In this document: positions 5,252 to 58,737 of the stretch, in pieces | How positions within the stretch are numbered: the stretch's first letter is position 1 | Layout: each line of letters begins with the position of its first letter | Origin: Actinomycetota bacterium | GTDB taxonomy: Bacteria; Actinomycetota; Thermoleophilia; Gaiellales; F1-60-MAGs149 | Direction of reading: 5' to 3' | Length of the DNA: 64,000 nt | NCBI GenBank assembly: GCA_026392355.1 | Contig: JAPLCF010000036.1 | Span: 129,054-193,053 of the forward strand | Program-made: the position numbers and the translations under genes | Notes under the pieces: generated by a model | Seen by the model: the letters and a program-made list of their open reading frames with translations, nothing else | Told to the model about the DNA's origin: nothing | Database searches by the model: none

Positions 5252-6055
5252 TCAGGACGTGCGGCCCGACCGCCAGTCGAGCAGCGCCTTGAGACCGTCG
5301 AGCGGCCACTCAGGGCCAGAGGTGCCGTAGATGAAGAACGTCGCGCCGGCATCGATGAACTGCTCGAGCTTCTCGTTCAGCTCGCCGGCGTCGGCCGGAA
5401 TCTCCTCGGCGTTGAGCATGATGCTGCGCTCGATCTCGTTGGGATCACGCCCGACGGTGGCGCAGTGCTTGTCGAGGACCTCACACTTGTGGCGGATCTC
5501 GTCGGGCGTACCGAAGCCGTGCCAGATGTCGGCGTGCTGCGCGACGAGCTTGAGCATGACCTTCTCGCCGCCTCCACCGATCAGGATCGGGATCTTGCCG
5601 CGCACCGGCGGCGGGTTGCCGATCGCCATGCGGTCCTTAATCACCGGGATGGCATCGCGGAAGGCGTGCAGGCGGGTGATCGCCGTGCCGAACTCATAGC
5701 CGAACTCGGTGTAGTCCTTCTCGAACCAGCCGGAGCCGATGCCGAGCGTCAGGCGCCCGTTCGAGATGTGGTCCACCGTGCGGGCCATATCGGCGAGCAG
5801 GTTCGGGTTGCGGTACGACATGCACGTCACGAGCGCACCAACCTCGACGCGGCTGGTGGCCTCGGCGAGCGCGGCGATCAGTGTCCAGCACTCGAAGTGC
5901 GGACCGTCCGGATCGTCGTACAGCGGATAGAAGTGGTCCCAGTTGTAGATCGCGTCGACGCCGAGCGTCTCGGCCTCGATCCACGACGCGCGCATGGCGT
6001 CATACGAGCCGTGCTGCGGTCGTGCCTGGTACCCAATGCGAATCGCTCGTGCCAT
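5252..6055 (-). CDS. LLM-class (luciferase-like) F420-dependent oxidoreductase
   Basis: 267-aa protein with the luciferase-like monooxygenase pattern (RIGYQARP..., SNGRLTLGIGSGW, IGGGGEKVMLKLVAQHADIWH). Close paralog of 6456..7259 and last gene of the cofCDE operon. Confidence 0.75.
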   Translation of the reverse strand: MARAIRIGYQARPQHGSYDAMRASWIEAETLGVDAIYNWDHFYPLYDDPDGPHFECWTLIAALAEATSRVEVGALVTCMSYRNPNLLADMARTVDHISNGRLTLGIGSGWFEKDYTEFGYEFGTAITRLHAFRDAIPVIKDRMAIGNPPPVRGKIPILIGGGGEKVMLKLVAQHADIWHGFGTPDEIRHKCEVLDKHCATVGRDPNEIERSIMLNAEEIPADAGELNEKLEQFIDAGATFFIYGTSGPEWPLDGLKALLDWRSGRTS

Positions 6056-6058
6056 GTC

Positions 6059-6451
6059 TCAGCCCATCCAGTGTTCGGAATTGACGTCCATCTCGATCTG
6101 CACGCGCGTCTCGCCCTCGCGGCGGAACGGATATGGCTTGCCGAGGTACTTCATGGAGAGATCGTCGATGCCCTGATCGCCGCCCTCCTCCGTCATCGAG
6201 ACCGTGCCGCGCAACTCGACGTAGCGATACCCGTTCTCGGGGTCGAGTGCCATGATCGTCACCCGCGGGTCTGCCTCCATGTTGCGGAACTTCGCGCGAC
6301 CGGCTGCGGTGTTGAAGACGATCCTGTCGCCTTCGACGTGCAGCCACACGACCGTGACCTGCGGATGCCCGTCGGGCCCGATGGTGGCGAGGCTGGCGAA
6401 GATCGGCTGCTCGAGCAGCACGCGAGTGTTTTCGGAGATCGGCATGCGCAT
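6059..6451 (-). CDS. PPOX-class (pyridoxamine 5'-phosphate oxidase fold) F420/FMN-dependent protein
   Basis: 130-aa protein MRMPISENTRVLLEQPIFASLATIGPDGHPQVTVVWLHVEGDRIVFNT..., typical of the split-barrel FDOR/PPOX family. Only the 3' part of track ORF 6059..6748 is used. There is a 4-nt gap to the upstream gene. Confidence 0.7.
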   Translation of the reverse strand: MRMPISENTRVLLEQPIFASLATIGPDGHPQVTVVWLHVEGDRIVFNTAAGRAKFRNMEADPRVTIMALDPENGYRYVELRGTVSMTEEGGDQGIDDLSMKYLGKPYPFRREGETRVQIEMDVNSEHWMG

Positions 6452-6455
6452 GAGC

Positions 6456-7259
6456 CTAGCGGCTCGCCTCTGTGCGACGGGCGCGCCAGTCGAGCAGCTG
6501 CCGCAGGCCGGCGAGGTCGTAGTCGGGTCCGGCGCCCGAGTAGAAGAAATACGTGGCGCCGGCCCCGACGTAGGCATCGAAGAGCGCGTCGTCGGCATCG
6601 ACCAGCTCGTGCGCCTCGAACATGATGCTGCGCTCGATCTCGGCCGGATCGCGTCCCACCGTGGCGCAATGCCTGTCGAGGACCTCGCACTTGTGGCGAA
6701 TCTCGTCGGGCGTCCCGAAGCCGTGCCAGATGTCGGCGTGCTCGGCAACGAGGCGCAGCATCACCTTCTCGCCCCCACCGCCGATCATGATCGGGATCTT
6801 GCCGTGCACCGGCGGCGGATTGCCGATCGCCATACGCTCGCGAATCACCGGCAGCGCATCGCGGAAGGCGTGCAGACGAGTGATGGCGGTGCCGAACTCG
6901 TAGCCGAACGCGGTGTAGTCCGGCTCGAACCAGCCAGATCCCAGCCCAAGCACGAGGCGACCGCCGGAGATGTGATCGACGGTGCGCGCCATGTCGGCCA
7001 AGAGGTTTGGGTTGCGGTACGAGACGCAGGTGACCATCGCGCCGATCTCCACGCGGCTCGTGGCCTCGGCTAGCGCGGCGAGCGAGGTCCAGCACTCGAA
7101 GTGCAGGCCGTCAAGATCGCTCTCGACCGGCAAGAAGTGATCGTCGTTGTAGACCGCGTCGGCACCGAGCGCCTCGGCCTCGATCCACGACGCGCGCATG
7201 CGCTCGAACGTACCGTCCTGGGGGCTGGCCTCGTAGCCAATGCGGATGGGGCGGGTCAT
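6456..7259 (-). CDS. LLM-class F420-dependent oxidoreductase (paralog of 5252..6055)
   Basis: 267 aa, colinear and highly similar to the 5252..6055 product along its whole length. Its start overlaps the cofE stop (ATGA at 7256..7259). Confidence 0.75.
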   Translation of the reverse strand: MTRPIRIGYEASPQDGTFERMRASWIEAEALGADAVYNDDHFLPVESDLDGLHFECWTSLAALAEATSRVEIGAMVTCVSYRNPNLLADMARTVDHISGGRLVLGLGSGWFEPDYTAFGYEFGTAITRLHAFRDALPVIRERMAIGNPPPVHGKIPIMIGGGGEKVMLRLVAEHADIWHGFGTPDEIRHKCEVLDRHCATVGRDPAEIERSIMFEAHELVDADDALFDAYVGAGATYFFYSGAGPDYDLAGLRQLLDWRARRTEASR

Positions 7260-7999
7260 GCGAAGAGGTCCTTGTCGCGATCGATGATGCCGCCGGTTGC
7301 GCCCTCAGCACCGGCCTCGAGCACGACGCCACGAATCAGCACCGCGGGGACGCCGCCGCTCGGGCCGAGGGCGAGCTCGGCGGCACTCGCGAGCTGATCG
7401 CCCATGTGGACCTGCGTGGAGTGGAACTCGCGTCCCGTGTCGTCGACGCGGCCGGCGTGCTCGACGACCGTGGCGAAGCCCGCCGCGCCAAGCGCGACGC
7501 CGACGGTGCCGCGGCGGAACGGACGCCCGATCGAGTCGCTGATCACGATCGCCACGTCGGCGCCAGTCGCCGCACGCAGCGCGTCGCGAAGTCCACGCGC
7601 CGAGGCATCGGGGTCAACAGGCAGCAGCGTCACGTGGTCGGCCGCATCCTGGTTGGAGCGATCCACACCAGCCGAGCCAAGCACGTGGCCTTGGGCGGTG
7701 CGGCCGATGATGAACGCGCCGCGGCTGCGCACGACCTCGGCCGACTCGCGCAGGATCACCTCGACGACGCGCGGATCGCCGCCATCAGCGGCGCGCTCCA
7801 GCGCCTCGGGCGACGGCTCGACATCGGCGAGATCGACGATGCGCCCCTCGGCCTTCGAGACCGGCTTCTGCGCCACGACCAGCACGTCGCCGTCGGCCAA
7901 TGTCTCGCCCGCGTCGGCGATCGCGCCGAGCAGCAGCGCGGCAAGGTCGTCGCCCGGACGAATGCGCGCGGCCAGCGGAATCGGGATCACCTGGATCAT
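7256..7999 (-). CDS. cofE: Coenzyme F420-0:L-glutamate ligase, single-domain CofE type
   Basis: 247-aa protein MIQVIPIPLAARIRPGDDLAALL...DVLVVAQKPVSKAEGRIV...GVDRSN... Start is at Met168 of track ORF 7256..8500, overlapping the cofD stop (ATGA). No nitroreductase-like C-terminal domain is present. Confidence 0.8.
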   Translation of the reverse strand: MIQVIPIPLAARIRPGDDLAALLLGAIADAGETLADGDVLVVAQKPVSKAEGRIVDLADVEPSPEALERAADGGDPRVVEVILRESAEVVRSRGAFIIGRTAQGHVLGSAGVDRSNQDAADHVTLLPVDPDASARGLRDALRAATGADVAIVISDSIGRPFRRGTVGVALGAAGFATVVEHAGRVDDTGREFHSTQVHMGDQLASAAELALGPSGGVPAVLIRGVVLEAGAEGATGGIIDRDKDLFA

Positions 8000-8913
8000 G
8001 CGAGCACCGCGGCGGCGAGACCCGTGCGCACGGCCGGGTCCTTCATCAGCGTCGGTACGACGATGGCGCGCATGGCGAGCGCGTCGAGGTCTGCGGCGAG
8101 TGCTGCGTCCTCCTGATCGAGCACGTATGCCCCGGCCAGCGGCTGCAGGTAGCGCGCCACACCGATCGCATCCGGGCGGTGCCCCATCGACTGGAGCATC
8201 TCGACGAGCGGTCCCTTGACGGCTTTGCCACCGATCACCGGCGAGACGGCCACGGTGTCGTCGCGGCGCGCGATCACGGCATCGCGAACGCCGGCCACGC
8301 CGAGGATCGGGTCGAGCGAAACGAACGGATTGGACGGGGCCAGCACGATGCGGTCGGCTGCGGCAATCGTCTCGAGCACGCCGGGCCCGGGCGTTGCGGC
8401 CTCGATGCCCTCGAAGCGCACGCCCGCGACGGGGTCGGCGGCACGGCGTCGGACGAGCCACTCCTGGAAGGGCAGCTCGCCGTCGTCGGTGGCGATCCAC
8501 GTCCGCAGGCGATCGTCGGTGGCAGGTAGGAGGCGCGTGGCACAGCCCCAGCGGTTGGCGACGTCGGCGGTGATCGACGACAGCGCCTCACCTGCCCGCA
8601 ACCGCCGCGTGCGCGCGACGTGCAGCGCGACGTCCTTGTCGCCGAGGATGAACCAGTCGTCCTCGCCGAGCTCGATCGCGGTGTCCATCAGGTTGCGCGT
8701 GTCGCCCGCCACACCCCAGCCATTGACCGGGTCGATGCGTCCCGTCAGCGTGTACAGCACGGTGTCGAGATCGGGCGAGATCGACAGCCCCCAGTGCTCG
8801 CAGTCGTCGCCGACGTTGCCGATCACCGTCAGCTCACCCGGCGCCAGTGCCTCGTGGAGTGTGAGCGCCATGCGCGCACCGCCCACCCCCCCGGCAATCA
8901 GCGTTACTTGCAC
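7996..8913 (-). CDS. cofD: 2-phospho-L-lactate (or EPPG) transferase CofD/FbiA
   Basis: MQVTLIAGGVGGARM N-terminus and a full-length 305-aa CofD-like protein. Located in the cofC-cofD-cofE operon. Confidence 0.85.
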   Translation of the reverse strand: MQVTLIAGGVGGARMALTLHEALAPGELTVIGNVGDDCEHWGLSISPDLDTVLYTLTGRIDPVNGWGVAGDTRNLMDTAIELGEDDWFILGDKDVALHVARTRRLRAGEALSSITADVANRWGCATRLLPATDDRLRTWIATDDGELPFQEWLVRRRAADPVAGVRFEGIEAATPGPGVLETIAAADRIVLAPSNPFVSLDPILGVAGVRDAVIARRDDTVAVSPVIGGKAVKGPLVEMLQSMGHRPDAIGVARYLQPLAGAYVLDQEDAALAADLDALAMRAIVVPTLMKDPAVRTGLAAAVLA

Positions 8914-9443
8914 GCGGCCTCGAACTCCTGCAGGTCGGCGGGCGTATCGAGATCGCGGGCCAGGCCCGGGCGCACGACGGGCGTACCGCCATGACGAGCC
9001 GCAGACCCCTCGCCGTACGACGGCGTAAAGGCGCTCGGCGGAGAGGCAGCGATGGCGTTGGTTCGGCCATCAGGCGAGGGCGCGATTGCCAGCGGGGTAG
9101 CGGCGGCCAGCAGCGCCTCGATGTCGCTCGTCTCGACATACGGAAGATCGGCCGCGATCACCACGATCGTCGACGCATCGGGATAGGCCGCGAGCCCGCG
9201 CAGCACGCTCCCCGTCAGATCCTCACCGCCATCATCGACCACGACGGTGCCGAGCTCGCGGGCCGCGATATAGGCCATCGGGTCTGACGAGACGATGGCG
9301 ACCTCGAGCCCCGCGCCCTGGCACGCATCGATGACGCGCGTGAGCAACTGCAGCGCGAGGGCATGCCGCTGCTCGGCATCGAGTACCTCGCCAAGGCGCG
9401 ACTTGGCGTCGTCGAGTGACTTGAGCGGAACCAGGGCTATCAT
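8904..9443 (-). CDS. cofC: 2-phospho-L-lactate / phosphoenolpyruvate guanylyltransferase CofC/FbiD
   Basis: N-terminal ALVPLKSLDDAKSRL motif in a 179-aa protein. First gene of the F420 operon, with a 10-nt overlap onto cofD. Confidence 0.7.
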   Translation of the reverse strand: MIALVPLKSLDDAKSRLGEVLDAEQRHALALQLLTRVIDACQGAGLEVAIVSSDPMAYIAARELGTVVVDDGGEDLTGSVLRGLAAYPDASTIVVIAADLPYVETSDIEALLAAATPLAIAPSPDGRTNAIAASPPSAFTPSYGEGSAARHGGTPVVRPGLARDLDTPADLQEFEAACK

Positions 9444-9492
9444 CCAGCGGCAGTCTACGTCCGCCGCGCGCGGGGGACGCGAAGGGAGACCC

Positions 9493-10494
9493 GTGATCCG
9501 GATCGGCTACAAGGCATCGAGCGAGCAGTTCGCTCCGCGGGAACTCCTCGAGTTCGCGGTCCACGCCGACGCGAAGGGCTGGGACACGATCGCGATCTCG
9601 GACCACTTCCAGCCGTTTCGTCATACGGGCGGCCACTCGCCGTTCTCCTTCGCCTGGATGGGCGCGCTCATCGAGCGCACGTGCCACGCGTCGATCGGCA
9701 CCAGCGTCATCACCCCGACTTTCCGCCATCACCCGTCCACGATCGCCCAGGGCTTCGCCACGCTGGCCTGCCTGGCGCCGGGCCGCATCTTCCTCGGTGT
9801 CGGCTCGGGCGAGTCGCTCAACGAGGTGCCGCCGACCGGCATCGAGTGGCCCGAAGGTCCGGAGCGCCTGAAGCGCCTGAAGGAATCGCTCGCGCTGATC
9901 CGCCAGCTCTGGAGCGAGGAGCGCGTGACGTTCGAGGGCGACTACTACTCGACGCGCAGCGCGACGATCTACGACCTGCCCGACGCGCCGCCGCCGATCT
10001 ACGTCGCTGCGGCCGCACCGATGGCGTCGCGCTACGCCGGCGCCACTGCCGACGGCTTCATCACCACGTCCGGCAAGCCGAAGGAGCTCTACACCGAGAA
10101 GCTCCTGCCGGCACTCGCCGAGGGCGCCGAGAAGGCAGGCCGCTCGCTCACCGAGCTTGACCTGCTGATGGAGATCAAGCTCTCGTACCACCCCGACCTC
10201 GATCAGGCCAAGAGCGACTGCGACTTCTGGGCACCGCTCGCGCTGCCCGCCGAGATGAAGCACGGCGTCGAGGACCCGGTCGAGCTCGAGCGGCTGTCGA
10301 AGGACCCGTCCGTCGATCCGACGAGCCGCTTCATCTGCACGAACGACCCCGACGAGGCCGTCGAACGCATTGCCGCCTACGTGGAGATGGGGTTCACGAA
10401 CCTCGTCTTCCACTACCCGGGTGCGGATCAGATCGGGTTCATCGACCGCTTCGAGGCCGACCTCCGGCCGCGCATCGCAGCGCGCTGGGGTTAG
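9493..10494 (+). CDS. fgd: F420-dependent glucose-6-phosphate dehydrogenase
   Basis: GTG start at Val67 of the track ORF, preceded by GAAGGGAG. The protein IRIGYKASSEQFAPRELLEFAV...SDHFQPFRHTGGHSPFSFAWM...GVGSGESLNE is colinear with mycobacterial Fgd1 as I recall it. Confidence 0.85.
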   Translation: MIRIGYKASSEQFAPRELLEFAVHADAKGWDTIAISDHFQPFRHTGGHSPFSFAWMGALIERTCHASIGTSVITPTFRHHPSTIAQGFATLACLAPGRIFLGVGSGESLNEVPPTGIEWPEGPERLKRLKESLALIRQLWSEERVTFEGDYYSTRSATIYDLPDAPPPIYVAAAAPMASRYAGATADGFITTSGKPKELYTEKLLPALAEGAEKAGRSLTELDLLMEIKLSYHPDLDQAKSDCDFWAPLALPAEMKHGVEDPVELERLSKDPSVDPTSRFICTNDPDEAVERIAAYVEMGFTNLVFHYPGADQIGFIDRFEADLRPRIAARWG

Positions 10495-10503
10495 GCTGCC
10501 GGG

Positions 10504-12924
10504 GTGCTGACCGACGCCGAGGCTCTCGCGCTCGCCGAAGATCCCTCGCCGGATCTGGCGACACTCTGTGCTGACGCACGCGCGCGCCGCGACGCCGCCT
10601 ACGGCGTCGTGGTGACGTACTCGCCCAAGGTCTTCATCCCGCTAACGATGCTGTGCCGGGACGTCTGCCACTACTGCACCTTCACGAAGCCCCCCAAGAA
10701 GGGCGAGCGGTCGTACCTCACGCCTGACGAGGTTGTGGCGCTGGCCGAGCAGGGCAAGGCGGCCGGGTGCCGCGAGGCGCTCTTCACCCTCGGTGACAAG
10801 CCCGAGCTCCGCTACGAGGCAGCGCGGCTCGAGCTGGCGGAGCTCGGCTTCGAGACGACCGTCGCCTATCTCGTGCACTGCATGGAGCGGGTGCTCACCG
10901 AGACCGGCCTGCTGCCCCACGCCAACCCCGGCATCCTCAGCGACGCAGAACTGGCGGCCACGCGTGCGTGGTCGCCGAGCCAGGGGATCATGCTCGAGAC
11001 GGCGAGCGCTCGGCTGAGCGAGAAGGGCATGCCGCACTACGGCTCGCCCGATAAGGAGCCCTCGGTGCGCCTCGACGCGCTGCGCCGGATGGGCGCGCAC
11101 AAGATCCCGACTACGTCGGGCATCCTGATCGGCATCGGCGAGACACGCCGCGAGCAGGTCGAGGCGCTGCTGGCGCTGCGCGAGTTGCACGCCGAGCACG
11201 GGCATCTGCAGGAGGTAATCGTCCAGAACTTCCGTGCCAAGGCCGGCACAAAGATGGTCGATGCGCCTGAGCCGTCGCTCGACGAGCACCTGTGGACGCT
11301 CGCGATGGCGCGCCTGATCCTGCCCGACGAGGTGAGCCTGCAGGCGCCGCCGAACCTCGCGCACGCCGACTTCCCGCGTCTGCTCGAAGCGGGCATCAAC
11401 GACTGGGGCGGCGTCTCGCCCGTCACGCCCGATCACGTGAACCCCGAGGCACCGTGGCCCGAGCTTGAGGTGCTGGAGGCCCGTACCAGTGAGGCCAGCC
11501 ACACGCTGCTGCCGCGCCTCACCGTGTACCCGCGCTTCCTCAACACCGAGTGGACCGAGCCCGCGCCGCTCGCCGCCGCACTCAAGCTCGCCGATGGCCA
11601 GTTGCGATCGCGCCCGCACGACGACTGGGTCAACGGCATCTCACAGTCGCCACCCGCCGCCTGGAGCGATGGACCGCCCGCCCGCCTTGGTGCGATCTCC
11701 ACCGACTTCGCCCGCGCCATCAAGCGCGCCGAGGCCGAGGAGCTGCTCGAGCTCGAGGACACCGAGGCGCTCCTGACCGCTCGCGGTCCCGAGCTCGCGC
11801 GCCTCGTCGAGCTCGCCGACCAGCGCCGCTGGGAACGCGCCGGCGATGACGTGACGTACGTCGTCTGCCGGAACATCAACTACACCAACGTCTGCTACTT
11901 CAAGTGCGGCTTCTGCGCCTTCTCGAAGGGTCGCCTCGCGGAGAACCTGCGCGGTCCCGCCTACCTGCTCGACGTCGATGAGGTCGCTCGGCGCTCGGTC
12001 GAGGCGTGGCAGCGCGGCGGCACCGAGGTGTGTCTGCAGGGCGGCATCCACCCGGGCTTCACCGGCGAGTGGTACCTCGACGTACTGCGCGCCGTGAAGG
12101 CCGCGCAGCCTGAGATCCACGTGCACGCGTTTTCGCCGCTCGAGGTCTGGCAGGGCGCGGCCACCATGCAGTGGACGCTGGCCGATTACCTGCGCCAGCT
12201 GAAGGAGGCCGGGCTCGGCAGCATGCCCGGCACCGCCGCCGAGATCCTCGACGACGAGGTCCGCGCCGTCCTCTGCCCCGACAAGGTGAACACCGAGCAG
12301 TGGCTCGAGGTGATGCGCACTGCGCACTCCGTCGGCGTGCGCACGACGGCGACGATCATGTTCGGCCACGTCGAGCGTCCCGTCCACGTGGCGCGCCACC
12401 TGCATCGCATCCGCGACCTGCAGCGTGAGACGGGTGGCTTCACCGAGTTTGTGCCGCTGCCGTTCGTGCCCGAGGAGGCGCCGATCGCGCTGAAGGGCAA
12501 GGCGCGTTACGGCCCGACCTTCGACGAGACGATCGCCCTCCACGCCACCGCGCGGCTGGCCCTCGACCCGTGGATCCCGAGCATCCAGACCTCGTGGGTG
12601 AAGCTCGGTCCCGAAGGCGCGCGCCACATGCTCGGCGCGGGCGTGAACGATCTCGGTGGCACGCTGATGGACGAGTCGATCTCACGCGCGGCGGGTGCCG
12701 CCCACGGCCAGGAGTGCCCGCCCGAGCGGATGGATGAGATCATCGCCGCCGCCGGCCGCGACGCGTACCAGCGCACGACGCTCTACGGCCGCCCCGACGC
12801 GGCGCAGGTTGCGCGCTCCTACGGCGCGCCGCCGCTCGCCGACACGACACCGCCCGCGTACGACGATCTCGGTCTCAAGCGCCCCGCGACGCTGATTCGC
12901 CCGGGCCTCGCCGGCGTCAGCTGA
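10504..12924 (+). CDS. fbiC: FO synthase, fused CofG/CofH (7,8-didemethyl-8-hydroxy-5-deazariboflavin synthase)
   Basis: 806-aa protein with two radical-SAM CxxxCxxC motifs (CRDVCHYCTF and CYFKCGFCAF), characteristic of bifunctional FbiC. Confidence 0.95.
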   Translation: MLTDAEALALAEDPSPDLATLCADARARRDAAYGVVVTYSPKVFIPLTMLCRDVCHYCTFTKPPKKGERSYLTPDEVVALAEQGKAAGCREALFTLGDKPELRYEAARLELAELGFETTVAYLVHCMERVLTETGLLPHANPGILSDAELAATRAWSPSQGIMLETASARLSEKGMPHYGSPDKEPSVRLDALRRMGAHKIPTTSGILIGIGETRREQVEALLALRELHAEHGHLQEVIVQNFRAKAGTKMVDAPEPSLDEHLWTLAMARLILPDEVSLQAPPNLAHADFPRLLEAGINDWGGVSPVTPDHVNPEAPWPELEVLEARTSEASHTLLPRLTVYPRFLNTEWTEPAPLAAALKLADGQLRSRPHDDWVNGISQSPPAAWSDGPPARLGAISTDFARAIKRAEAEELLELEDTEALLTARGPELARLVELADQRRWERAGDDVTYVVCRNINYTNVCYFKCGFCAFSKGRLAENLRGPAYLLDVDEVARRSVEAWQRGGTEVCLQGGIHPGFTGEWYLDVLRAVKAAQPEIHVHAFSPLEVWQGAATMQWTLADYLRQLKEAGLGSMPGTAAEILDDEVRAVLCPDKVNTEQWLEVMRTAHSVGVRTTATIMFGHVERPVHVARHLHRIRDLQRETGGFTEFVPLPFVPEEAPIALKGKARYGPTFDETIALHATARLALDPWIPSIQTSWVKLGPEGARHMLGAGVNDLGGTLMDESISRAAGAAHGQECPPERMDEIIAAAGRDAYQRTTLYGRPDAAQVARSYGAPPLADTTPPAYDDLGLKRPATLIRPGLAGVS

Positions 12925-32877: not shown

Positions 32878-33494
32878 GTAACGCAACCGCCGTCGAGCTC
32901 CGCTCCTGCATCTACCTCGATCAGCTGCAGCCGCAGACCATGTGTTACCTCGGCTCCTGGATCAAGGGCCGCCTGCCGCGCGCCGGCATGGCCGCCCAGA
33001 TCATCGAGGTCGCACCGGGTCTCGACATCGAGGCACTCACCGACGTCGCGCTCAAGCACGACCGCGTCGAGGCCGGCATCCTGTTCGTCGAGCGCACCTT
33101 CGGCTACCTCGAGATGCACTCGCTCTCGCCCGCCGCCGTCAAGTCGGCCACCAGCGCCGTGCTCGACGCGCTCGACCTGTCGGGTCGCGACTCGATCAAG
33201 CCGAAGATCCTGGCCAAGAAGGTCATCTCGCGCGTCGACGGCCAGCACGCCTTCCTGATCAACCGCAACAAGATCGGCTCGATGCTCCTGCCGGGTGAGT
33301 CGCTGTTCGTACTCGAATGCCAGCCCGCCTCGTACGCGATCCTCGCGACGAACGAGGCCGAGAAGGCCGCCGACATCAAGGTGATCGACTACCGCATGAT
33401 CGGCGCCACCGGCCGCGTCTACCTGTCCGGCGAGGAGGCCAACGTCCGCGCTGCGGGCGAGGCCGCCGTCGCAGCGCTGGAGGCAATCGCGTGA
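32874..33494 (+). CDS. BMC shell protein, tandem BMC-domain (BMC-T-like), paralog 1
   Basis: 206 aa with a GTGA-coupled start. Two BMC-like halves are visible (AAQIIEVAPGLDIEALTDVALK... and SLFVLECQPASYAILATNEAEKAADIKVI...GRVYLSGEEANVRAAGEAA). Confidence 0.7.
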   Translation: MSNATAVELRSCIYLDQLQPQTMCYLGSWIKGRLPRAGMAAQIIEVAPGLDIEALTDVALKHDRVEAGILFVERTFGYLEMHSLSPAAVKSATSAVLDALDLSGRDSIKPKILAKKVISRVDGQHAFLINRNKIGSMLLPGESLFVLECQPASYAILATNEAEKAADIKVIDYRMIGATGRVYLSGEEANVRAAGEAAVAALEAIA

Positions 33495-34060
33495 GCGAAG
33501 CCCCCGTCAACGAGAGCACCGAGATGCACGCGGCGCTGAAGACTGCGCTTGCCGAGCTCCTGCCCGACATGCTGCGCGAGCATCAGGCGGCTCCGGTCGC
33601 CCAGGTGCCTGCACCGCCCGTCGCGCAGACGCTGCGCCCGAGCACCTGGCACCCGTCGCAGCAGGCGCCCGATCCGGCGGGCAACGCCGCTCCCGCCCCC
33701 GCTGCCGCACCGGCCGCCGGGGGCGCCGTCGAGCAGGTGCGTCTCAAGGACGACCGCGACCTCGACACGTTCGTGCGCTCGCTGGCACGCCGCCTCGAGC
33801 ACCCGGCCGAGCGCGCCGCGATTGCCGCGGGCCACATCCGCTTCACCATGACGGGCCACGGCACACCTGCCGCCGCGCCTGCACCCGCCACGAGCGGTAC
33901 CGAGCGCATCGAGCGCGGTGCCGTCACCGAGCGCATCATCGAGCGCGCCGCCGAAAACGGTGGCGTCCTCGTGCTCGGCCCCAAGGCCGTGCTCACGCCG
34001 ATGGGCAAAGATCGCGCCCGCGCACTCGGCGTCCAGATCCAGAGGGAGGCAGCATGCTGA
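33491..34060 (+). CDS. BMC-associated hypothetical protein (N-terminal amphipathic helix, Pro/Ala linker, small C-terminal domain)
   Basis: 189 aa. GTGA-coupled upstream, and its end overlaps the BMC-P start by 7 nt. Contains MHAALKTALAELLPDMLRE, then a P/A-rich stretch, then ...GAVTERIIERAAENGGVLVLGPKAVLTPMGKDRARALGVQI. Confidence 0.6.
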   Translation: MSEAPVNESTEMHAALKTALAELLPDMLREHQAAPVAQVPAPPVAQTLRPSTWHPSQQAPDPAGNAAPAPAAAPAAGGAVEQVRLKDDRDLDTFVRSLARRLEHPAERAAIAAGHIRFTMTGHGTPAAAPAPATSGTERIERGAVTERIIERAAENGGVLVLGPKAVLTPMGKDRARALGVQIQREAAC

Positions 34061-34627: not shown

Positions 34628-35272
34628 ATGGCCGGACCGGATATCGAACTGCGCGTCTACCTCCCCATCCCCGAGCTGCGTCGGCAGTTCGCGGCCTACA
34701 TGGGGACGCCGACGCGCGCTCGTGGCTACCCGCCGATGGAGGGCGAGCACGCTCTCATCGTCGAGGTCGCTCCCGGTCTGGCCATCGAGCGCGTTATCGA
34801 CCTCGCGCTCAAGGCCGTGCCTGAGGTCGAGCCCGGCATCCTCTTCGTGGAGCGCCAGTTCGGCGTCCTCGAGCTGCATGCCAAGGACGCGGAGACGGTT
34901 GAGCGCGCCGGTGCGGCGATTCTCGCCGGCATCAACGCCGAGCCGTCGCATCAGCTGAAGCCCCGCATCCTCTACTCGGATGTGATCGAGGACATCACCG
35001 ATCAGCACGCGGTGATCGTCAACCGCAACCGCCAGGCCTCGATGGTCCTGCCGGGCGAGTCGCTGCTCGTCTACGAGATGGCACCCGCACTGTTCGCAGC
35101 CATGGCAGCCAACGAGGCCGAGCGCGTCGCCCCGGACGTCACGGTCGTCGATATCGCGATGATCGGTGCGACCGGTCGCATCTACATGAGCGGCAAGACC
35201 GAGAGCGTCCTCAAGGCCCGCGACGAGATCACGCGCGTACTTGAGGCCGTCGTCGGCCGCGACCACGGATAG
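34628..35272 (+). CDS. BMC shell protein, tandem BMC-domain (BMC-T-like), paralog 2
   Basis: 214 aa, colinear with the 32874..33494 product (IELRVYLP...ALIVEVAPGLAIERVIDLALK...SLLVYEMAPALFAAMAANEAERVAPDV...GRIYMSGKTESVLKARDEI). AAGGAG RBS. Confidence 0.7.
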   Translation: MAGPDIELRVYLPIPELRRQFAAYMGTPTRARGYPPMEGEHALIVEVAPGLAIERVIDLALKAVPEVEPGILFVERQFGVLELHAKDAETVERAGAAILAGINAEPSHQLKPRILYSDVIEDITDQHAVIVNRNRQASMVLPGESLLVYEMAPALFAAMAANEAERVAPDVTVVDIAMIGATGRIYMSGKTESVLKARDEITRVLEAVVGRDHG

Positions 35273-35273
35273 G

Positions 35274-35370
35274 TGCTCCGAAGGGGTCAGACCCTTTTGG
35301 AGCATCGCATCATTGCGGTCTATTTCAGCGTCGTCCGGATGCTCCAAAAGGGTCTGACCCCTTCGGAGCA
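35274..35370. repeat. MITE/REP-like palindromic element, copy A (perfect 33-bp arms, 31-nt spacer)
   Basis: TGCTCCGAAGGGGTCAGACCCTTTTGGAGCATC ... GATGCTCCAAAAGGGTCTGACCCCTTCGGAGCA. It begins 1 nt after the BMC-T2 stop codon and is related to the element at 57877..57980. Confidence 0.75.
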
Positions 35371-35371
35371 T

Positions 35372-35391
35372 CGGTCTGGTCGAACAGACCG
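35372..35391. promoter_or_regulatory. Second GGTCTG/CAGACC palindrome: CGGTCTG-gtcgaa-CAGACCG
   Basis: 7-bp perfect inverted arms 40 nt upstream of the kinase gene. It shares the half-site with the 29986..30021 array. Confidence 0.4.
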
Positions 35392-35431
35392 GATACCCAT
35401 ATACTCCTGCCCCTGAGGAGAGGTGGAGCCC

Positions 35432-36424
35432 ATGGCAGAGGTCGTGGATCAAGACGAGGTTGATCGCTTGGCGCAGGCCGCGCTTGCGCACTACGACGTG
35501 TCGCCGGGTTGCACCCTGCAGCTGATCAACCTGTCCGAGAACTGGACGTATCGCGTCGAGGATCCCGACTCTGGCACGACCTATGCCCTGCGCGTGCACC
35601 GTACGGGGTACCACACGCCCGCGGAAATCGCCTCCGAGCTGCTGTGGATCGACGCGCTCCAGCAGGATGACGTCGTCGGCACGGTTACCCCGCTGCCTGC
35701 GCGCTCCGGCGAGCGCGTGATCCAGATGGCGACGGAGACCCTGCCCGAGCGGAGCGTCGTGCTGTTCGCATGGGAGGAAGGCGCGCCGCCCGACCCCGAT
35801 GCCGACCTGATCCCGGTCTACCGCACGCTCGGCGCGATCAGCGCTGGCATGCACGAACACGCCCGCGGCTGGCAGCAGCCTGCGGCGTTTACCCGCTTCA
35901 GCTGGGACTTCGACACCGCGCTCGGCCCGCAGGGCCACTGGGGCCCGTGGCAGGACGCCGTCGGCCTCGACGACGAGAAGCGCGACCTCTTCCAGCGCAC
36001 GGTCGACGTCGTCGATCAACGCCTGCAGGCCTACGGCAAGGGGCCCGAGCGCTATGGCCTGATCCATGCCGACATGCGCCCCGCCAACGTGTTGGTGCTC
36101 GGCGACGACGTTCGGGCCATCGATTTCGACGACTGCGGCGCCGGCTGGTTCATGTACGACTTCGCGACCACGATCTCGTTCATCGAAGAGCACCCGATGG
36201 TGCCGGAGTGGCGCGCGTCGTGGCTCGAGGGCTATCGCTCGGCCGGCACGCTCAGCGCGAAGGACGAGGCCGAGCTCGACACCTTCGTGATGCTGCGCCG
36301 CATGATGCTGCTCTGCTGGGTCGGCTCGCATTACGCCCATGCCATCGAGGCGCAGGAACTCGGCGCCGATTTCACGCTCGCCACGTGTCCGCTTGCGGAG
36401 ACGTATCTCTCGCACTACGCCTGA
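35432..36424 (+). CDS. Aminoglycoside-phosphotransferase-fold kinase (candidate 1-amino-2-propanol kinase)
   Basis: Catalytic loop GLIHADMRPANVL and IDFDD metal-binding motif. ATG 35432 is preferred over GTG 35423 because of the spacing to the GAGGAG RBS. Confidence 0.8.
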   Translation: MAEVVDQDEVDRLAQAALAHYDVSPGCTLQLINLSENWTYRVEDPDSGTTYALRVHRTGYHTPAEIASELLWIDALQQDDVVGTVTPLPARSGERVIQMATETLPERSVVLFAWEEGAPPDPDADLIPVYRTLGAISAGMHEHARGWQQPAAFTRFSWDFDTALGPQGHWGPWQDAVGLDDEKRDLFQRTVDVVDQRLQAYGKGPERYGLIHADMRPANVLVLGDDVRAIDFDDCGAGWFMYDFATTISFIEEHPMVPEWRASWLEGYRSAGTLSAKDEAELDTFVMLRRMMLLCWVGSHYAHAIEAQELGADFTLATCPLAETYLSHYA

Positions 36425-56987: not shown

Positions 56988-57842
56988 CTAGCCCGCGGCC
57001 CACGTGGACAGCGCCGTCCACCCGGCGGCCGTCGTGGTGGCGAGGTCGTAGAGGCTAAAGCCGTTGGCGCCGGCGTCGCGCGCGCCCCGCGCGGCGGCGT
57101 CAAGATTTGCTGCCGACAGCCCACCCGCAAGGCCGCTGATCACGTGCACTGGCAGCGCCTGATCGCCGGTCAGATCGCGTGGCTTCTGCGTGCAGCCAGC
57201 CGTCATCGTGTACATCGCCTGGGGGCTCAATTTGCGCGGTGCGTAACACATCGGCAGCACTGCGTCTGCGTTCTTCTGGATCTCCGCCCAGGGGAAGATC
57301 GGCCAGTAGTTACTGGTCGGATTCGGCGTGATTGCGCCGATCGGGGTTTGCGGATAGGTCGCGCGCAGCCATGCCACCAGGGCGCCAGCGCGCTGCGAGC
57401 GCAGCTTCGGATTCTTGACGTAGGTGGCCTCGATGTCGACCGCGACGCCGTCGACCGCCTCGGTTCCGCCGATCGCGAGCGCGGCAGCAAGCCGGCGCTG
57501 ATCCACCTTCGGCTTCTGGAAGCCCGGGAGGTACCACGGGACGACGCGAATGCCTGCGGCGTGCGCGAGCGTGACGAGCTGCTTCAGAGGGGCGGGGTTC
57601 ACAACGTCGACCTTGCTCTTCGCGTTAGCCGTCTCGACGTAGATGACGGAAACGCCCTGCTGCTGCGCGGTCGTGACAACGCTGGTCGGGTTCTTCTCGA
57701 GCGCATCCCAGATATCGATCCACACGCCGGTCCCCGAGAACACCGCGGCGCGGGCGGGCTCAGCTCCGGCCGTCGGAGCGACCAGACCAAGCGCGAGCGC
57801 GATCAGGGCGAGCAATGGGACGACGCGGCGCATGGCTCGCAT
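56988..57842 (-). CDS. Secreted hypothetical protein (TIM-barrel glycoside-hydrolase-like, DUF4015-like)
   Basis: Signal peptide MRAMRRVVPLLALIALALGLVAPTAGAEP. The function call is weak. Confidence 0.4.
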   Translation of the reverse strand: MRAMRRVVPLLALIALALGLVAPTAGAEPARAAVFSGTGVWIDIWDALEKNPTSVVTTAQQQGVSVIYVETANAKSKVDVVNPAPLKQLVTLAHAAGIRVVPWYLPGFQKPKVDQRRLAAALAIGGTEAVDGVAVDIEATYVKNPKLRSQRAGALVAWLRATYPQTPIGAITPNPTSNYWPIFPWAEIQKNADAVLPMCYAPRKLSPQAMYTMTAGCTQKPRDLTGDQALPVHVISGLAGGLSAANLDAAARGARDAGANGFSLYDLATTTAAGWTALSTWAAG

Positions 57843-57876
57843 CCTACGTGTGGTTCGGGATGGTGATCAGCCGTGT

Positions 57877-57980
57877 GAATGCTCCAAAGGGGTCAGACCC
57901 TTCTGGAACATGACGGCAATCCTCATAGTCGTGGAGACGTTCTCCATGTTCCAGAAGGGTCTGACCCCTTTGGAGCATTC
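57877..57980. repeat. MITE/REP-like palindromic element, copy B (perfect 36-bp arms, 32-nt spacer)
   Basis: GAATGCTCCAAAGGGGTCAGACCCTTCTGGAACATG ... CATGTTCCAGAAGGGTCTGACCCCTTTGGAGCATTC. The right arm abuts or overlaps the GntR stop codon (57979..57981). Confidence 0.75.
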
Positions 57981-58737
57981 ACGCACCGAGGTGATCGGCC
58001 AGCGAGCGTGCAGCCGCGGCCGCCTCGGCTTTCGGATCGACCGGCTGCTGCTGCGACTCCGCGTAGGCGAGCAGTGCCTGGCGGGCGCGGTTGCTGTGGT
58101 GCAGGAGCAGACGCGCGAGCTCGTCACCATCATCGGCGCGGATCGCAGCGATCATCTGATGGTGCTCGGACTGCGCGTGATCCTGCTCATTGAGCACGCT
58201 GACCGCGACCCGCGAGTACGAATCCATCAGCGTGAGCACGCGCCCGGCGGCATCGGCGAAGTACGGCATGCCGGACAGCCGGTGCAGCTCTTGGTGAAAG
58301 GTGTAGTTGCGGTCGGACCACGTCTCGGGATCCAGGTCGTCCATCGCGTCAACGAGCCCGCTCAGCAGCTCGAGGTCGGAGGCCGTGGTGTTGCTGACGA
58401 TGCTGGGTGCCATGTGCGACTCAAGCAGCGCGCGCAGGGTCCAGACCTCATCCACCTCGTGTGGCTCGAGCTCCGTAACCTTCGCGCCGCCGTCGTCGGA
58501 GAACGTCACGAGACCTTCGGCCGCTAGCGCGTGCAGTGCCTCGCGCACGGGAATGCGACTGACGCCCATGGCCTCGGCGATCGAGGCCTGGATCAGCGGC
58601 TGGCCGGGGGCGAGTAGTCCCTGACGGATGCCCTCCCGTAGGACCTCGGCAATCGCCGGCTTGCTGCCGGTGCGCGTCGTCTCAGCCTTGGCGTTCATAG
58701 CCAGCGATCGTACAGGGCTGCGGTCGGAAATGGGCAT
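57979..58737 (-). CDS. GntR family transcriptional regulator (FadR/FCD-type)
   Basis: HTH IQASIAEAMGVSRIPVREALHALAAEGLV plus a helical C-terminal domain. The start is either Met102 (58737) or Met115 (58698) of the track ORF. Confidence 0.75.
   Translation of the reverse strand: MPISDRSPVRSLAMNAKAETTRTGSKPAIAEVLREGIRQGLLAPGQPLIQASIAEAMGVSRIPVREALHALAAEGLVTFSDDGGAKVTELEPHEVDEVWTLRALLESHMAPSIVSNTTASDLELLSGLVDAMDDLDPETWSDRNYTFHQELHRLSGMPYFADAAGRVLTLMDSYSRVAVSVLNEQDHAQSEHHQMIAAIRADDGDELARLLLHHSNRARQALLAYAESQQQPVDPKAEAAAAARSLADHLGA

Follow-up and report, generated by a model that had tools for sequence, protein, structure and literature searches.

Is a perfect inverted repeat that stands directly behind the last shell gene of a microcompartment (BMC) operon part of the way in which the operon is expressed, or is it a repeat that has only lately arrived there? 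The question is raised by a 97-nt element within a 64,000-nt stretch of DNA, referred to here as the window, from an uncultured organism; the nearest named relatives of the window proteins are found in Gaiellales/Thermoleophilia MAGs. The preliminary description of this DNA considered both possibilities, an attenuator or mRNA-stability element that sets shell:enzyme stoichiometry and a recent mobile insertion. The evidence set out below favours the second, and the element is probably a non-coding, dispersed REP-doublet (REPIN-like) repeat that recently entered the RMM operon and a second intergenic site 22.6 kb away.

The element and its second copy in the window

The first copy (copy 1) is found in an RMM-type BMC locus, the first part of which comprises a class-III aminotransferase, an aldehyde dehydrogenase, BMC-T, an unknown gene, EutN, BMC-H and BMC-T, and which continues 3' of copy 1 with an APH-family kinase, an SDR, a GntR/UTRA regulator and an FmdA-type amidase. 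As first described, the element stands between the shell/core genes and the accessory enzyme genes, with the shell genes on its 5' side and the kinase/SDR genes on its 3' side, and it starts 1 nt past the stop codon of the last shell gene, the TAG being at 35270-35272 and the element running from 35274. The gene at 33317-34060, which is conserved in the shell cluster between BMC-T and EutN (orthologues of 183-190 aa, e.g. L122:8142-8705 in a relative), has no assigned Pfam family in the window or in any relative and may be an uncharacterised RMM component. An F420-related cluster (5252-12924) with CofD, a CofG/CofH-type radical-SAM fusion and three luciferase-like oxidoreductases precedes the BMC locus, and the remainder of the window carries the usual metabolic genes of a chromosome (F420 biosynthesis, luciferase-like oxidoreductases, thiolase, Nramp, DEAD helicase, acyl-CoA dehydrogenase and hydantoinase). 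Neither the window nor the corresponding loci of relatives yielded a transposase or an integrase. The features at the two sites are the following.

34628..35272, + strand: last shell gene before copy 1, 214 aa, BMC-T-like; orthologues carry PF27545 CsoS1D_N
35274..35370, no strand assigned: copy 1, palindromic doublet of 97 nt (left arm, 31-nt spacer, right arm)
35274..35306, no strand assigned: left arm of copy 1, a REP-like unit; 14-bp palindrome with two G.T positions around GGGGTC-A-GACCC
35307..35337, no strand assigned: spacer of copy 1, 31 nt; unrelated to the spacer of copy 2 or to any other sequence examined
35338..35370, no strand assigned: right arm of copy 1, matching the reverse complement of the left arm exactly; the two asymmetric positions are A.C
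35372..35391, no strand assigned: conserved palindrome CGGTCTGGTCGAACAGACCG immediately 3' of copy 1, also present in relatives without the element
35432..36424, + strand: APH-family kinase, first gene past copy 1; RBS GAGGAGAGG at 35415-35423, conserved TATACT at 35400-35405
56988..57833, - strand: secreted protein, 281 aa, no assigned family, downstream of copy 2
57862..57872, no strand assigned: GGTGATCAGCC, an imperfect direct copy of GGTGATCGGCC (57990-58000); does not abut copy 2
57875..57982, no strand assigned: copy 2, doublet of 108 nt (38-nt arms at 57875-57912 and 57945-57982, 32-nt spacer at 57913-57944)
57979..58737 (start approximate), - strand: GntR/FCD regulator on the upstream side of copy 2; the right arm of that copy contains its TGA stop (57979-57981), which is TAG in relatives

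The two arms of copy 1 are, as had been claimed, 33 nt long, 100% complementary and 31 nt apart. Compared as direct repeats they are only 85% identical, at a spacing of 66 nt, and the second arm is therefore an inverted and not a direct copy of the first. Each arm taken alone is an imperfect palindrome centred on GGGGTC-A-GACCC; at 33 nt it falls within the size of a REP unit, a short (20-40 nt) imperfect palindrome, and it folds on itself with a 14-bp stem. The 12-mer core GGGGTCAGACCC occurs at four sites in the window when up to one mismatch is allowed, against 0.41 expected (none of 100 shuffles gave four), and for the complete 33-nt arm 0.00 chance occurrences are expected. The spacers were compared with local and foreign sequence as possible captured DNA and gave chance 10-12-mers only, and an 8-mer that the spacer has in common with the ancestral segment replaced at the site (see below) did not extend.

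The element was also encountered in an independent assembly from the same population, a Logan contig of 1157 nt (SRR20698643, L121), which is the only other contig found with the exact kinase of the window (100% identical) and whose sequence opens at the inner edge of the right arm of copy 1, with the first base of that arm. Since this contig begins exactly at the right arm, the element is not an artefact of one assembly. Short-read assembly breaks within the inverted repeat in this case, and such elements may accordingly be under-represented in metagenome assemblies.

The related copy that had been noted 22 kb away lies at 57875-57982, 22.6 kb off, and its 38-nt arms are again 100% complementary around a spacer of 32 nt. 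The arms of the two copies differ at 4 of 33 positions, each of which is mirrored, and so compensated, in the partner arm; the spacers are unrelated in sequence and near-equal in length (31 and 32 nt). These are the two copies in the 64-kb window, and both are intergenic, lie between co-directional genes and adjoin the stop codon of the upstream gene.

Orthologous junctions in relatives

Orthologous loci were obtained via homologues of the flanking proteins, in relatives that span 70-96% protein identity. Alignment indicated that copy 1 is not at the orthologous junction in any of the relatives whose kinases are 95%, 92%, 78% and 70% identical (L122-L135). The distance from the shell-gene stop to the kinase start is 159 nt in the window, 82 nt at 95% and 92% kinase identity, and 34-38 nt at 78% and 70%. 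At this site the window carries a G, the 97 nt and a T in place of 22 nt (CGACCAGACCGCAGCACGAAAA in the 95% relatives), a stretch that in the latter lies between the stop and the conserved palindrome CGGTCTGGTCGAnCAGACCG. Copy 2 is likewise not at the orthologous site in relatives with a GntR regulator 96%, 91% and 87% identical (L146-L152), where a gap of 30 nt corresponds to 145 nt in the window. The ancestral site, ...GCG TAG GC ATCCCGAACC..., has here become ...GCG TGA A[TGCTCC...GGAGCA]T TCAC ACGGCTGATCACCAT CCCGAACC..., with replacement of about 5 nt; with this change of TAG to TGA the stop codon of the GntR/FCD gene is now provided by the outer arm of the element. Approximately 15 extra nucleotides past copy 2 include an imperfect direct copy of GGCCGATCACC, which itself lies 9 nt upstream of the stop.

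Comparison of filled and empty sites revealed no target-site duplication at copy 1 or copy 2 (flanks GGATAGG/TCGGTCT and CAGCCGT/GCACCGA), a feature that the preliminary description had proposed to look for along with the presence of the element in orthologous BMC loci, from which it proved absent in all relatives recovered. Both copies are missing from every close relative recovered, and we therefore regard them as recent, lineage-specific insertions and not as a conserved part of the RMM-type operon; with no element in any sampled relative, a gain in the lineage of the window is the parsimonious account. The recent insertion envisaged in the preliminary description is in this respect supported at both sites. 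In the orthologous pair L138/L141 the spacers are homologous (~80% identical by eye) and one member carries two uncompensated mismatches in its arms, which shows that arms gain uncompensated mismatches with time, and the perfect arms of the window copies thus fit a young age.

Neither insertion is clean, copy 1 involving a replacement and copy 2 a replacement, a change of stop codon and extra nucleotides, and such replaced and extra nucleotides at both sites are not what a simple transposition model predicts. What is seen at copy 2, a local duplication that is no canonical target-site duplication, points to microhomology or template switching. The insertion point in both empty sites reads NTAG; as there are two events and the stop codon was itself replaced in one of them, a targeting of TAG stops by the ends of the element is to be taken as a lead only.

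The sequence that follows copy 1 has a history of its own. The palindrome CGGTCTGGTCGAnCAGACCG and an invariant TATACT stand ~30 nt before the kinase start (window 35372-35405; L122:9919-9975; and the equivalent in L128). In the 92-95% relatives a third half-site, CGACCAGACCG, lies upstream and pairs with the conserved palindrome as an 11-bp hairpin 4 nt past the shell-gene stop; in the window the element took the place of this third half-site, and the 70-78% relatives are without the whole palindrome/TATACT block. The half-sites TGGTC/GACCA resemble operators of HutC/DasR-type GntR regulators, and a GntR/UTRA gene is present in the operon. The palindrome together with TATACT could serve the kinase-SDR-GntR-FmdA unit as an operator or promoter inside the operon.

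Relation to known repeats and a core found in many phyla

The preliminary description had called the element a palindromic REP/MITE-like repeat, and the palindromic repeat type is supported by comparison with the REPINs, the RAYT (TnpA-REP) associated REP doublets of Pseudomonas and Enterobacteria, in which two inverted short imperfect palindromes also form one long hairpin. In REPINs the spacer is less conserved than the REPs, its length and the capacity to form the hairpin are critical and compensatory changes are common (PMC3116915), and the spacers of REP dimers vary in sequence but not in length (PMC3733652); the window copies share the constant spacer length, the poorly conserved spacer sequence and the compensatory arm changes. 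They further resemble REPINs in being extragenic and near gene 3' ends, in lacking a target-site duplication and in the occurrence of solo units beside doublets.

There are also differences. RAYT-type REPs are defined by a 5' tetranucleotide, GT[AG]G or CGTC, that marks the hairpin foot (PMC6006769, PMC3733652), whereas the outer feet of the window elements read ATAGG, ACCGA and GTGAA, neither tag being present, and over 147 elements the tags were not enriched (GT[AG]G in 6.5% against 5.5% of controls, CGTC in 2.7% against 6.1%). REPINs are scattered over extragenic space in tens to hundreds of copies, and the 64 kb of this genome hold two. Their cognate RAYT is a Y1 HUH gene that is present once in the same genome and in most cases has REPs on its flanks. 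No RAYT was found here either: RAYT-sized ORFs bracketed by cores gave no Y1_Tnp match in Pfam, and searches with E. coli RayT by phmmer and jackhmmer returned no homologue among 11,033 ORFs (1.24 Mb, including 64 kb of this genome). The window elements also come from an uncultured Gaiellales-like actinobacterium, are built of units that are palindromic almost throughout and have arms of perfect complementarity; moreover, REPINs are said to persist and to be passed on mainly by vertical inheritance, whereas the two window copies are missing from 95-96% relatives. Because the GT[AG]G/CGTC tag is absent and no RAYT was found, we call the element REPIN-like and do not file it as a member, and we describe it as a new, untagged actinobacterial variant of the known REP-doublet class.

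The BIMEs of E. coli, such as the malE-malF and yjdMN REP hairpins, are also inverted palindromic units between co-transcribed genes, but their sequences are unrelated, they are Y/Z heterodimers with defined linker motifs, and the window hairpin is far longer and perfect. Intrinsic (Rho-independent) terminators have in common with the element a GC-rich stem-loop directly past a stop codon; the element differs from them in having no U-tract on either strand and a far longer stem (33-38 bp), in being repeated elsewhere and in being missing from orthologous operons. This class was rejected, as no U-tract is present and no terminator-like site was detected in 34900-35700 or 57600-58300. A scan for sigma-70 promoters at both copies found none, Rfam gave no match in the window at the gathering thresholds (permissive searches returned miRNA-precursor-like noise of 13-24 bits against thresholds of 47-380), and blastn of both copies against plasmids and phages gave no match.

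The relatives carry their own variants on the common core, at a low density of one each in 15-20 kb. One of them (L128) has a solo 33-nt palindrome, GGTTCCGTTTGGGGTCAGACCCCAAACGGAACC, and in another (L135) a longer inverted repeat encloses a pair of units whose core is a variant; in this 70% relative, outer arms of ~29 nt (GCATTTTTGATGGAGGCGGCAGACAAGATTC...) enclose the variant cores GGGGTCAGGCCC / GGGGCCTGACCCC at ~460-615, upstream of a CYTH/CHAD gene. A Gaiellales MAG (L087) and other actinobacterial MAGs (L034, L109 and L077) display the same design, ATG....RAAGGGGTCAGACCCTTY....CAT, with outer stems that differ and co-vary. The family-specific arm pattern was found at only 8 loci in the metagenome collection, solo hairpins included, and one of these is a proteobacterial contig with BIME-like clusters.

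The core itself extends much further. A scan with one genome per species found two GGGGTC-W-GACCCC cores at the right spacing at no fewer than 120 loci, where a pattern of 24 specified bases is estimated to give ~0.1 chance matches, and the phyla among the matches listed include Actinomycetota, Alpha-, Beta- and Gammaproteobacteria, Planctomycetota, Bacillota, Acidobacteriota, Gemmatimonadota, Spirochaetota and others. At these loci each lineage has its own flanking stems and loops and the 13-nt core is kept, a conservation that is partly ascertainment since the set was chosen on the core. Outside the core, arm-to-arm complementarity in 140 elements is 0.50-0.64 compared with 0.28-0.31 for shuffled partners, and self-pairing per unit is 0.40 compared with 0.28. 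In a smaller collection, of viral contigs, scanned with identical geometry, the real core gave 4 loci (3 independent; L153-L156) and five composition-matched palindromic control cores gave 0 matches each; small as these numbers are, they point to a true recurrence of the core. Elements within -20 to +10 nt of the stop of a long ORF number 56 of 141, against 18 +/- 3.8 at random positions, a control that is not conditioned on intergenic positions, so that the excess shows little beyond a location that is intergenic and at gene 3' ends. A test for elements inside long ORFs was uninformative, high-GC DNA being full of spurious ORFs. Clustering of ~4,800 ORFs from 128 loci found only housekeeping superfamilies in place of a gene that travels with the elements; the recurring neighbours are ABC transporters, NtrC-type regulators, SDR, acyl-CoA dehydrogenase, acetyl-CoA synthetase, aldehyde dehydrogenase and PurK. 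A full-text literature search for the core sequence returned unrelated primers and viral sequences only.

Several lineages have peculiarities that we record separately. Nearly every intergenic gap holds the core in Parapusillimonas (L097) and Halomonas (L023 and L076). In betaproteobacterial loci (L022, L028, L051, L056, L062, L088, L119 and L139) the arm by the core carries TTATCCACA / TGTGGATAA, which is part of the inverted repeat and corresponds to the consensus DnaA box. Hyphomicrobiaceae loci (L038, L046, L089 and L092; also L007, L024 and L103) have a common arm, GGGGTCAGACCCCTCGC, and loops that are unrelated in sequence but exactly 32 nt long (27-31 nt in others), the length being fixed and the sequence free. 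Perfect 80-nt arms surround the core at L024:1-190, reaching the contig start, and a 100-nt perfect palindrome without a loop surrounds it at L020:6083-6182; these extreme palindromes could be real or could be fold-back assembly artefacts. It is conceivable, and we put this forward tentatively, that the GGGGTC-W-GACCCC doublets form an undescribed, untagged REP-like superfamily across many phyla, with stems that co-vary by lineage around an invariant 13-nt apex.

Spread of the element and consequences for the operon

The mechanism that we propose is that the element would spread as a hairpin-forming unit by a structure-dependent route, which could be single-strand HUH-type transposition like that of IS200/RAYT-type elements (the route proposed for REPINs) or could involve recombination between copies or template switching from one to another; cut-and-paste DDE transposition would not be the route. 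The short stretch replaced at copy 1 and the duplicated local sequence at copy 2 are more readily reconciled with template switching than with clean transposition.

Folding predictions agree with the claim of a very stable RNA hairpin, giving -72.7 kcal/mol (z = -14.3) for the 97 nt of copy 1, -101 kcal/mol (z = -9.3) when its flanks are included, and -82.1 kcal/mol for copy 2. Folded singly as RNA, the left arm of copy 1 reaches -22.6 kcal/mol (14-bp stem, two G.U) and the right arm -15.3 kcal/mol (A.C at the same positions), and the one long hairpin is thus far stabler than two arm hairpins (-72.7 against about -38 kcal/mol).

Any effects on the operon would be incidental, the transcript being expected to form a 33-bp perfect duplex with its foot 1 nt from the shell-gene stop. 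By analogy with the REPs of E. coli, the hairpin could block 3'-5' exonucleases or partly terminate read-through into the kinase/SDR genes. It might, by similar analogy, offer a site to RNase III, of which a 33-bp perfect duplex is a textbook substrate, or impede the terminating ribosome, which would have to melt the foot 1 nt from the stop; Liang, Rudd and Deutscher reported in 2015 that a REP no more than about 15 nt from the stop codon lowers expression of the gene before it. The REPs of E. coli act as partial terminators and as stabilisers of upstream mRNA in a context-dependent manner, with positions that vary between strains (bioRxiv 10.64898/2026.03.23.713779; malE-malF model, PMC5927463). 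A secondary influence of the hairpin on mRNA stability, on read-through or on termination would be plausible by this analogy, but as the candidate effects oppose each other the net change in shell:enzyme ratio is not predictable from sequence, nor, with the hairpin flush with the stop codon, is the direction of any effect.

A stronger claim would be that the hairpin is a selected cis-regulatory RNA element that lowers the kinase and SDR relative to the shell/core genes or stabilises the shell-gene segment. This is unlikely in our assessment, even though the predicted hairpin is very stable and lies exactly at the shell/enzyme boundary, and REP hairpins are known to favour expression of the upstream gene. 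The smaller 11-bp hairpin past the same stop in the 92-95% relatives does mean that a junction hairpin recurs in the clade, yet the element is in none of the orthologous operons, and the 70-78% relatives, with their 34-38 nt gap, are without any hairpin. The same element also stands at the unrelated locus of the GntR/FCD and secreted-protein genes, there is no U-tract, and the downstream palindrome and TATACT hint at a separate promoter/operator for the kinase which, if real, would make attenuation less relevant. The attenuator of shell:enzyme stoichiometry that had been suggested finds, for the same reasons, no support as a conserved feature and may instead be a side effect, and as the element is missing from the relatives' operons, the hairpin cannot be the ancestral design of the operon.

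Other origins for the repeat were weighed against the same data. A MITE, which derives by deletion from a DDE-transposase insertion sequence and is moved in trans via its terminal inverted repeats (TIRs), would likewise be small and non-coding with perfect terminal inverted repeats, at least two copies and a presence/absence polymorphism, and MITEs with long inverted repeats (Correia, ERIC, Nezha and RUP) are also hairpin-forming, dispersed and sometimes within operons. These, however, have target-site duplications and/or a parent IS and a conserved internal sequence, none of which was seen for the window element; its 'TIRs' are the whole element, each internally palindromic, and no IS with matching ends (TGCTCCRAAGGGGTC) was found in the window, related loci, plasmids or phages. 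We consider the MITE origin improbable and rejected it because no target-site duplication is present and because the internal sequences are unrelated; copies of one MITE would not be expected to have spacers as different as these. The dimensions of two ~33-nt repeats with one 31-32-nt spacer, and the direct-repeat reading given above, recall a minimal CRISPR-like array, to which we assign next to no probability; the arms are exact inverted copies, an orientation that effectively refutes it and on which it was rejected, the whole repeat is palindromic, the window contains no cas genes, the spacers match no other sequence examined and the copies have no phage or plasmid match. It is quite unlikely, too, that the arms are paired sites for a widely conserved DNA- or RNA-binding host protein (a nucleoid, topology or processing factor) that reads GGGGTC-W-GACCCC, the sites being selected and spread by recombination. 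The 6-1-6 palindromic core is indeed kept while the flanking stems vary among lineages, it occurs in many phyla, and it outnumbers the control cores (4 against 0) in viral contigs, but no gene for such a protein recurs beside the elements, the sites are not kept at orthologous positions and the cross-phylum set was picked on the core, so that part of this conservation is ascertainment. To our knowledge, no protein is known to read this palindrome.

Taken together, the data argue for a REPIN-like repeat that has recently entered the operon, and they imply that the hairpin does not belong to the means by which RMM microcompartments fix their shell:enzyme ratios, since in close relatives the same operon operates in its absence. 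Populations that are near-isogenic but differ in having or lacking a perfect 33-bp hairpin directly at the shell-gene stop constitute a natural experiment that could reveal changes of expression inside the operon. The known range of the REP-doublet architecture now takes in an uncultured Thermoleophilia-type actinobacterium and also elements that lack the GTAG/CGTC tag. The part most worth pursuing is the 13-nt palindromic core that is common to the paired hairpins of many phyla. Should the superfamily be true, an unrecognised mobilising enzyme or host factor would read the apex and not the GTAG/CGTC foot, and the window would show a young member from an actinobacterium, shortly after it had inserted; the sharing of the core, if it is not convergence, points to a recognition system as yet unknown.
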